A stretch of DNA of 64,000 nt from Deltaproteobacteria bacterium (GTDB lineage: Bacteria > UBA10199 > JACPAL01 > GCA-016699445). Below are positions 35,840 through 37,505 of this stretch, in pieces (the first letter of the stretch is position 1; each line of letters opens with the position of its first letter). The notes beneath the pieces are model-generated. The model saw nothing but the letters and a program-made list of their open reading frames with translations, did not search any database and had not been told where the DNA came from. The position numbers were made by a program, and so were the translations under genes. The stretch is from the NCBI GenBank assembly GCA_016699445.1, contig CP064976.1, forward strand, positions 2,222,619-2,286,618. The letters run 5' to 3'.

Positions 35840-37505
35840 TTATGAGTGGGGCAATAGGCCACAACTGCCATTAGCCGCGGAATCATTGAGGGTTTCTGGA
35901 GTTCCATCGGACCCGCTGGCACCTGTGATAGTGCCAACTTCTCCTGAACTGCCGCCTGTTTCTGCTGCGGGAGGTTCCGTTCCTCCAGAGCCTCCTCCGC
36001 CTGTTCCCGAAACTCCTCCTGATGAGGTTTCTATCCCACTTCCAGAAACACCACCGGAAGCGTCTGAAGTGACACCCCCTGAACCCGAACTTCCTCCCGA
36101 TCCGGCTCCCAAATCACCGCCTGAACCCGCTGCGGATTCACCTCCAGAACCATCTCCAGAAGCACCACCCGACCCACCTCCGGAACCACCGGAGGCTGTG
36201 ACAAAGCTGGCATAGACTTGACCAAAAATTTCAAAATCATCATCTGCACGATCATGCCCAGACCAAATAACTAAGGCTTGATGGGAAAGTTGGCTGTAAT
36301 CAATGGCCGAAAAAACCGCATCAAAAGCAGGATCTCGATCAGGTCCCATATCACTGATACGAAAAGATGTTTCAATATTAAGACCTGTAACGGCATCTAC
36401 TTGTTGAGTATAAATTTCATTTTCGTCATCAACAACAAAGTCTGTAGCCTCGTCTCCAGTCCAGGTGACAATATAAGAATGAGACAAATTATCGTAGGTC
36501 ACAGCAGGGTTTGTGGCATCAAAAGCAATAAGTCCATCTCCACCCATTTGGGAAATTTTTATATTCTCACCGCTTAAAGATCCGGTGTCTGCATTGATGA
36601 TTTGCCCATAAATTTCATATTCAGTCGCGACCGCACGATCGCCAAACCAGACAACAAAAAACTGATCCGTATCTTCATTGTAAATGACCATAGGATCAAG
36701 CGCGTCTTTGTTGGTAGCCAATCCTGAAGATGTCATGTCGCTGATTTTAAATTGAGAGCCTAAAGGTGCTGCCGAAGGTGAGAGTCTCTGCCCAAAAATT
36801 TCAAAAGCATTATCCAAAAGCTCATCTCCTTGCCAGACAAGTAGGTATTGGTGGTTGATGTGGTCGTAAGCAACGGATGGAAGGAGGGCTTGGATCAGAG
36901 TATTCCCATCCGCTCCCATATGGAGTCAGTCGAATGGGTGAACCGACAGTTGTTCCGCTATTGGAAATGATTTGTCCGTAAATTTCAAACTCCGCACCGA
37001 TATCATTTCCCTGCCAGGTAACAAGATATTGATTCAGAGTGCTGTCATAAGCCACGCTTGGATTGGTGGCGTCATGAGTGGGATCTCCGTCCGTACCCAT
37101 ATGGCTGATACGTAGAGGGCTTCCGATCAAAATACCTGTGGAGGCGTTAAGGCGTTGAGCAAATATTTCATATTCGTGATCGGTAGCGGTAGCGACAGGA
37201 GTATCTCCATACCAAATAACCAAATACTCATTGTCATGACTATTGTAAGCAACTGATGGATTGAGTGCATCTATATTGGCATTTCCATCTACATCCATTT
37301 GGCTAATCCGAATCCGGCTTCCCAATAAACTGCCAGAGGCATTCATTTGTTGGACGTAAATTTCAAACTCATCGTTGACCAAGCTTCCGGTATTATCGTC
37401 TCCATACCAAACAGCTAAATAACGATTATCAATAGAATTGTAAGCAATGCTCGGTCGAAAAGCTCCAAAGCTGGTAGATCCTAAATCTCCAGGAAGAGGT
37501 CCCAT
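35840..37505 (-). CDS. Tandem-repeat protein (~50-aa repeats, consensus ..RISxMGxDGDxxxDAxNPSVAYxxxxxxYLVxWxGDD..EIYGQ) with Gly/Ser-rich C-terminal tail; frame disruption near 36905
   Basis: ORFs 36822..37505 and 35840..36919 overlap and carry the same repeat unit; removing one C in ACTCCATATG joins ..SPIRLTHMGADG.. in frame. Confidence 0.55.

Follow-up and report, generated by a model that had tools for sequence, protein, structure and literature searches.

A predicted secreted seven-bladed beta-propeller protein with a Gly/Ser-rich tail, encoded by a frame-broken gene in a Deltaproteobacteria bacterium

The DNA analysed here, referred to as the window, is a stretch of 64,000 nucleotides from a Deltaproteobacteria bacterium. 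Two overlapping open reading frames (ORFs) lie on its minus strand, at 36822-37505 (227 aa) and 35840-36919 (359 aa), and are annotated in GenBank as two separate proteins, QQR80123.1 and QQR80122.1. The motifs RIS-x-MG-x-DG, NPSVAY, YLVVW-x-GD and EIYGQ are spread over both ORFs and are followed by a Gly/Ser-rich stretch. Three-frame translation of 35800-37660 revealed that the protein has a further, third piece upstream, spread over two other frames. This piece opens with MKN at 37611, runs on in the next frame as YFLLFLFYFFALQRLHADPVLPEVGT, and is then joined to NDFPISAMGPLPG, which is read in the same frame as the 227-aa ORF. The gene thus extends over 35840-37611 and has three interruptions instead of one. 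The original prediction, which started the gene at 37505 and described one frame disruption splitting it into two ORFs, had overlooked the exon-like upstream piece that carries the signal peptide.

The 90% identity cluster of the two GenBank proteins also contains an intact copy, P0122 (610 aa), from an independent Logan assembly (run SRR12404947). It is carried by an 18.3-kb contig, L001, which is collinear with positions 26218-44513 of the window. Over the gene, the window and this contig differ by 4 substitutions in 2060 nt (99.8% identity) and by exactly three 1-nt indels, all of them read here on the minus strand. The first, at 37604-37608, is a run of five A in the window against six in L001. 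The second, at 37527, is a single C in the window (GGCACAATG) against CC in L001 (GGCACCAATG). The third, at 36922-36923, is CC in the window (ACTCCATATG) against a single C in L001 (ACTCATATG), and it is the only break that had been spotted before. Once the three are undone, the pieces from three frames join into a coding sequence of 1773 nt (35840-37611, minus strand) with one terminal stop. Its 590-aa precursor is the same as residues 21-610 of P0122 except for V87A and V534I. An exact-sequence lookup of a truncated NCBI ORF (P0032) returned no match.

The start codon lies at 37609-37611, with an AAGG Shine-Dalgarno-like site 8 nt upstream of it. It opens a Sec-type signal peptide, MKKYFLLFLFYFFALQRLHA, which is followed by DP after the cleavage point (37553-37611, minus strand) and is broken by the first indel. 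The N-terminus of the intact copy reads MKKYFLLFLFYFFALQRLHADPVLPEVGTNDF. The signal peptide is of the classical type, with MKK, a 12-residue hydrophobic core and LHA directly before D, its n, h and c regions having been assigned by eye. A scan of the locus for promoters and terminators gave counts not above those of shuffled sequences.

When the E-I-[FY]-x-Q motif was used as an anchor, the protein resolved into seven units of 59-66 residues, about 62 each. A hidden Markov model (HMM) of the blade, built from 74 blades of other proteins only, found seven matches in the repaired protein (i-E 7e-26 to 1e-17, 50-76 bits), while 200 residue shuffles of the same protein scored at most 8.2 bits. 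The repeat is therefore far beyond chance. Thus, the tandem repeat with these motifs, as described in the original prediction, is confirmed on the minus strand, with seven copies in place of about eight and a longer unit than the ~50 residues then given.

The seven-bladed domain covers residues 30-472 (36197-37526, minus strand, as are all the blades). It begins with the N-terminal strand EVGTNDFPIS and blade 1 (residues 26-88; 37350-37537; i-E 7e-26), followed by blade 2 (residues 90-153; 37155-37346; i-E 4e-25) and blade 3 (residues 154-214; 36972-37154; i-E 2.8e-24). Blade 4 (residues 216-275; 36788-36968; i-E 6e-21) holds the third indel. Blade 5 (residues 276-337; 36602-36787; i-E 1.3e-17), blade 6 (residues 341-403; 36404-36592; i-E 9e-23) and blade 7 (residues 407-465; 36218-36394; i-E 1e-20) complete the set. 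Blade-to-blade identity is 26-49%, with a mean of 40%. At the DNA level, Tandem Repeats Finder detected no blade repeat and reported only a 12-nt repeat in the Gly/Ser-coding part. The blades are thus too diverged at the DNA level to have arisen by recent DNA amplification.

With 45 homologues as input, AlphaFold2 modelled residues 30-474 at a mean pLDDT of 90 and a pTM of 0.93. Each unit is made of four strands, which follow one another as PSVAYN, YLVVW, EIYGQ and xxFRIS. In the model, the seven tandem four-stranded antiparallel units make up a seven-bladed beta-propeller, which superposes globally on solved seven-bladed propellers. The repeat had earlier been said to resemble a beta-propeller or beta-helix building block; the former is borne out by the model with its four strands per unit, and the latter is rejected by it. 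In one structural comparison, hundreds of WD40 and integrin propellers ranked below the best matches. A Foldseek search likewise put CylK at the top (TMq 0.64), followed by long-bladed glycosidases, lyases and sialidases. A lone D-type strand (NDFPIS) stands at the start of the mature protein, and a C-type strand (EIFGQVY) is the last one of the domain. In every other repeat, the D strand completes the preceding blade. A strand is also predicted at residues 46-53 of P0122, matching the N-terminal strand. Judging from this strand order, the N-terminal strand probably closes the ring onto blade 7. We hold the gene model and the fold with high confidence.

Beyond the propeller lies a Gly/Ser-rich C-terminal tail (residues 473-590; 35843-36196, minus strand), which ends in NGSCGLLPHS before the stop codon at 35840-35842. 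The low-complexity tail of about 100 residues that had been predicted is real. It has 118 residues, of which 43 are glycine and 26 serine (58% together), and it is equally long in L001. The 12-nt tandem repeat found by Tandem Repeats Finder lies within the tail-coding DNA, at 36139-36190. In a full-length model, residues 495-610 of P0122 have a pLDDT below 50 and no secondary structure; the tail is therefore taken to be disordered. It matches no NCBIfam or Pfam model, and the NCBIfam models for the T9SS CTD, JDVT-CTERM, PEP-CTERM, GlyGly-CTERM and MYXO-CTERM sorting signals find nothing in P0122 or in the window protein. The C-terminus has no transmembrane helix. A sorting helix hidden by a further frameshift was considered and rejected, as the end of the protein is identical in L001 and no downstream frame encodes a transmembrane segment. 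As the tail has neither anchor nor sorting signal, surface attachment of the window protein is unsupported.

The gene has nadB upstream and a gene for a 600-aa Q/P/T-rich protein downstream, an arrangement conserved only in the sister strain. This low-complexity protein is encoded directly downstream on the same strand (33935-35737, minus strand), has no Pfam match and no obvious signal peptide, and differs from its sister-strain copy by in-frame indels of 9 nt and 3 nt (about 35271-35279 and 35216). Two toxin-antitoxin-like pairs adjoin the locus: on the minus strand Phd/ParE (32518-33088), and on the plus strand an RHH-like ORF with a PIN domain (33230-33932). Two further neighbours are probably exported: a DUF11/CLIPPER-domain protein with a Cys-rich tail (40164-41039, plus strand) and an M10 (matrixin) metallopeptidase (43631-44347, minus strand).

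No universal partner gene was found among 78 loci of the family by all-against-all ORF clustering, and the genomic context offers no clue to function. A lineage-restricted neighbour set occurs in 8 to 11 of these loci and is absent from the window. In it, genes for an ATP-grasp protein, a KamA-like radical-SAM protein, a gamma-glutamyltranspeptidase-like protein and a polytopic membrane protein precede a family member of about 1200-1500 aa, which is followed by a beta-barrel-like ORF; these identities were read by eye from the translated sequences. The loci are L033, L034, L037, L039, L041, L042, L049, L052, L059, L065 and L067, and the named records among them include Eisenbacteria, Phycisphaerales, Isosphaeraceae and Zixiibacteriota.

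The family to which the protein belongs is large. A word-indexed search gave 1228 matches (top E 1e-210, 36-46% identity), and the names among the 120 matches listed are all generic, nearly all of them 'hypothetical protein'. At 50% identity, there are 10,179 representatives at E 1e-3, 5,681 at E 1e-10 and 2,026 at E 1e-30. Among species-representative genomes, 463 loci were found in many phyla, including Chloroflexota, Eisenbacteria, Sumerlaeia, Bacteroidota, Planctomycetota, Actinomycetota, Acidobacteriota and Myxococcota, as well as in Bdellovibrionales, Colwellia, Pseudoalteromonas and one Halobacteria metagenome-assembled genome (MAG). The archaeal member (L031, JABDRC010000361.1) has 730 aa and 40% identity, and could be explained by horizontal transfer or by contamination during binning. 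At least 7-8 loci with members of about 500 aa (L017, L021, L030, L035, L046, L056 and L073) come from a single Candidatus Sumerlaeia MAG (CAUZJO01), which is a marked paralogue expansion.

The family-wide blade consensus is NDFRISDMGPDGDxxxxAxxPAVAYNSxxNEYLVVWxGDDxTxxLVDxExEIFGQRLxAxTGAExG, and a typical blade has 66-67 residues. Exactly seven blades are present in 99 of 121 members. Longer proteins, which can reach 2000 aa or more, have a second propeller or additional domains. The window protein has diverged from this consensus. Its within-protein blade identity is 0.40 against 0.57 in the family, its internal loops are shortened in four of the seven blades, and the first Asp of SDMG is retained in only two of them.

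That the repeat could not be assigned to a named family, as the original prediction had it, is upheld. Pfam and NCBIfam were searched with the repaired protein, with six relatives and ten further ones, and with 46 alignment members; no model for the repeat reaches its cut-off. Matches to Colicin_E5, Chromo, Ribosomal_L14, class D beta-lactamase and others were set aside as noise, sub-threshold or spurious repeat-induced hits. The named propeller repeats WD40, PD40, Kelch, NHL, FG-GAP, SBBP and BNR give no match to the window protein at E up to 10 and are absent from the 25 most frequent families of 46 relatives. No relative was found among PDB sequences with the single protein (phmmer), or with the full-length and single-blade profiles (hmmsearch), the latter serving as a homology search with one repeat unit; matches to fumarase, streptavidin and a mini-binder were judged to be chance. 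A literature search on PF22847, Glyco_hydro_43_rel and the repeat motifs found nothing. Thus, no well-known family with an established function claims the repeat. The window protein joins a very widespread but unnamed family of secreted seven-bladed propellers, as a new member that is somewhat degenerate.

The partner domains of the relatives speak of life outside the cytoplasm. Those above threshold are the T9SS type A sorting domain, JDVT-CTERM, RTX nonapeptides, FlgD-Ig, the myxobacterial Cys-rich repeat, LTD and PPC. PKD also occurs, as do PEP-CTERM-like and GlyGly-CTERM-like tails. By a crude pattern, a signal-peptide-like N-terminus is present in 64 of the 102 members that start with M. 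As far as such sequence features can tell, the family is one of predicted extracellular or cell-surface proteins, and export of the window protein itself is likely. In another observation, a motif of the form Y/F-L-P-L/V-V/I-L-R/K ends at least 19 of 120 members, 15-20 residues after the last blade. Members with it, mostly Chloroflexota-type sequences, include P0001, P0005, P0007, P0008, P0022, P0034, P0040, P0048, P0050, P0063, P0073, P0077, P0083 and P0088. The NCBIfam sorting-domain models gave no match to P0005, the one such member scanned. The motif may be an unrecognised C-terminal sorting or anchoring tag.

Several known propellers can be set beside this family. The best structural match is the C-terminal propeller of CylK (PDB 7RON/7ROO), a cyanobacterial Friedel-Crafts alkylating enzyme, although identity over the structural alignment is only 7-8% and 7RON was not found at E up to 10 by the full-length or single-blade profiles. 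The CylK propeller is known to have a blade-bridging Ca2+ site in every inter-blade loop, along with unusually long internal loops (PMC8916777). Long internal loops are also a feature of the window protein's family, whose inter-blade loop carries a conserved acidic motif. CylK, however, has an N-terminal Ca2+ beta-roll which forms the active site jointly with the propeller. The window protein lacks this part, as blade 1 follows directly after the signal peptide with no HemolysinCabind or other N-terminal domain.

A precedent for seven equivalent sites is provided by the Photorhabdus seven-bladed propeller lectins PLL and PHL (PDB 5C9O), together with BP39L and CV39L. In the PLL lectins, the binding sites lie between the blades (PMC6943638). 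Their blades are shorter, about 47 residues, and the Trp-based sugar sites of PLL are not recognisable in the window protein; PLL, PHL and BP39L gave no match in the phmmer and hmmsearch runs of the window protein and its profiles against PDB sequences. Another secreted seven-bladed propeller, E. coli YncE (PDB 3VGZ), shares 11% identity with the window protein, has a different repeat motif and lacks a Gly/Ser tail. The only Pfam models that touch the repeat are Glyco_hydro_43 (PF04616) and Glyco_hydro_43_rel (PF22847). The former matches one blade at 20.8-22.6 bits, below its gathering cut-off of 32.2, and the latter is only faint. Glycoside hydrolases of family 43 (GH43) are built of five blades with a catalytic acid triad; neither the five-bladed single-site architecture nor the triad is present in the window protein.

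The pattern of conservation in the family follows the repeat. All invariant columns of the full-length alignment are repeat-consensus positions. When blade i was compared with blade j between proteins, across the 99 seven-blade proteins, a flat identity matrix of 0.46-0.54 was obtained, computed from HMM match columns only, such that blade-specific loop features could escape it. Within one protein, blade identity is higher (0.57). The flat matrix and the repeat-wise conservation argue against one asymmetric active site and fit seven equivalent functional units. The top face carries two long loops with a strong bias to acidic or amide residues, namely the blade-to-blade loop S-D-M-G-P-D-G-D/N and the internal loop G-D-D-x-T-x-x-L-V-D-x-E. 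In 679 blades, ten top-face loop positions hold acidic or amide residues at 70-100%, and the variable positions also concentrate in the top-face loops (blade columns 25-31 and 52-59).

It could be argued that the propeller has one active site and works as a glycoside hydrolase or lyase (GH43, sialidase, GH145 or PL42 type), or as a lyase or alkylase similar to CylK or Vgb. Such a reading draws on the sub-threshold GH43 match (E 7.8e-5 at its best), on faint precomputed PF22847 matches on most relatives, and on the sialidases, GH43, GH145 and PL42 enzymes that come after CylK in the Foldseek list; RTX repeats are also present in some relatives, as in CylK. However, all these matches stand at 7-13% identity and reflect blade geometry. 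GH43 enzymes have five blades and sialidases six, against the seven found here, and the profiles match no solved enzyme at E up to 10. Moreover, the family has no blade-specific conserved residue, in which it also contrasts with CylK, and the window protein has no RTX or beta-roll domain. An enzyme of this kind is accordingly considered improbable, and the sequence leans mildly towards binding rather than catalysis.

The frame breaks also call for an explanation. All three indels are located in short runs of a repeated base. Within the 18 kb comparable to L001, the window also breaks dnaJ, the Phd antitoxin gene and a gene for a 698-aa protein, all of which are intact in L001. In dnaJ (about 30026-31110, plus strand), a 1-nt deletion near 30085, 60 nt from the gene start, leaves residues 1-20 in frame 2 and residues 21-361 in frame 1. 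A 1-nt indel at about 32834 alters the Phd ORF at its C-terminus. The 698-aa gene (41456-43513, plus strand) appears as three overlapping ORFs in the window (frames 2, 1 and 2). Its product has no Pfam match and, at 72-90% aa identity, is far more diverged than the genes around it (99-100%), which points to either a hypervariable gene or poor assembly at this place.

A genuine strain-specific pseudogene, in which three real frameshifts have inactivated a surface protein that is still intact in the sister strain, would account for three uncompensated 1-nt indels inside 1.8 kb, the first two of which cut the signal peptide off from the body of the protein. The two assemblies do represent different strains (98.4% identity over 16 kb), GenBank lists two proteins, and the indels are somewhat denser than the local rate of about one per 2 kb. 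Decay, however, predicts premature stops or an excess of substitutions, and neither is seen; apart from the indels, the gene hardly differs from the intact copy, and its product does so at just two amino acids. The source contig of 2.75 Mb, which belongs to a MAG, suggests a long-read assembly. A pseudogene is thus unlikely. As the indels fall in short base runs, dnaJ is broken in the same way and the propeller gene shows no other decay, the three breaks are very likely residual single-base assembly errors. The contig carries such residual indels, dnaJ included, and split ORFs elsewhere in the assembly need a read check before they are given a biological reading.

With the breaks so explained, the following account can be proposed. 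One intact gene would give a 590-residue protein with a cleavable Sec signal peptide, which would be exported. It would fold into a closed propeller of seven four-stranded blades of 59-66 residues, the N-terminal strand completing blade 7. Outside the cell, the propeller may be a lectin- or adhesin-like module that binds multivalently with pseudo-sevenfold symmetry. The residues that touch the ligand, and probably bind Ca2+, would be found in the top face's two long acidic loops, and the disordered 118-residue tail would serve as a flexible spacer. The acidic loops, taken with the inter-blade Ca2+ sites and the long internal loops of CylK, make Ca2+ stabilisation of the loops a reasonable hypothesis for the window protein, one that we hold tentatively. 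The conserved R, S, E, E, W and Q could also be purely structural, like the tetrad of WD40 proteins. A passive structural or coat role (for instance in a surface layer or matrix), in which the protein binds no specific ligand and its residues are conserved for folding only, would agree with the confinement of the highly conserved positions to the repeat core, with the many different anchors of the family and with the large paralogue sets in some genomes (e.g. the Sumerlaeia MAG), but is improbable, since the variable positions cluster in the top-face loops, as specificity-determining sites would, and the window copy has no anchor. As a whole, the explanation of an exported seven-bladed propeller with a Gly/Ser tail, engaged in multivalent extracellular binding and interrupted by assembly errors only, seems reasonably probable.

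There is nothing mechanistically unprecedented at the locus, which would encode an ordinary secreted propeller. A bolder proposal sees in the family a class of extracellular lectins or adhesins that is as yet undescribed, pseudo-sevenfold and stabilised by Ca2+, each blade bearing one equivalent site; at present this must be called speculative and somewhat unlikely. If true, this class would comprise about 10,000 clusters at 50% identity from more than 15 phyla, with many surface anchors and no Pfam or NCBIfam model. Its closest structural counterpart would be the Ca2+-bridged propeller of CylK, and within it the window protein would stand as a diverged member that has a Gly/Ser spacer and no anchor. 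Biochemical characterisation of one member, for Ca2+ and for glycan or cell-wall binding, would be worthwhile. With its confident fold, clean 66-residue blade consensus and diverse surface anchors, a family of this size that carries no annotation merits a curated domain model.
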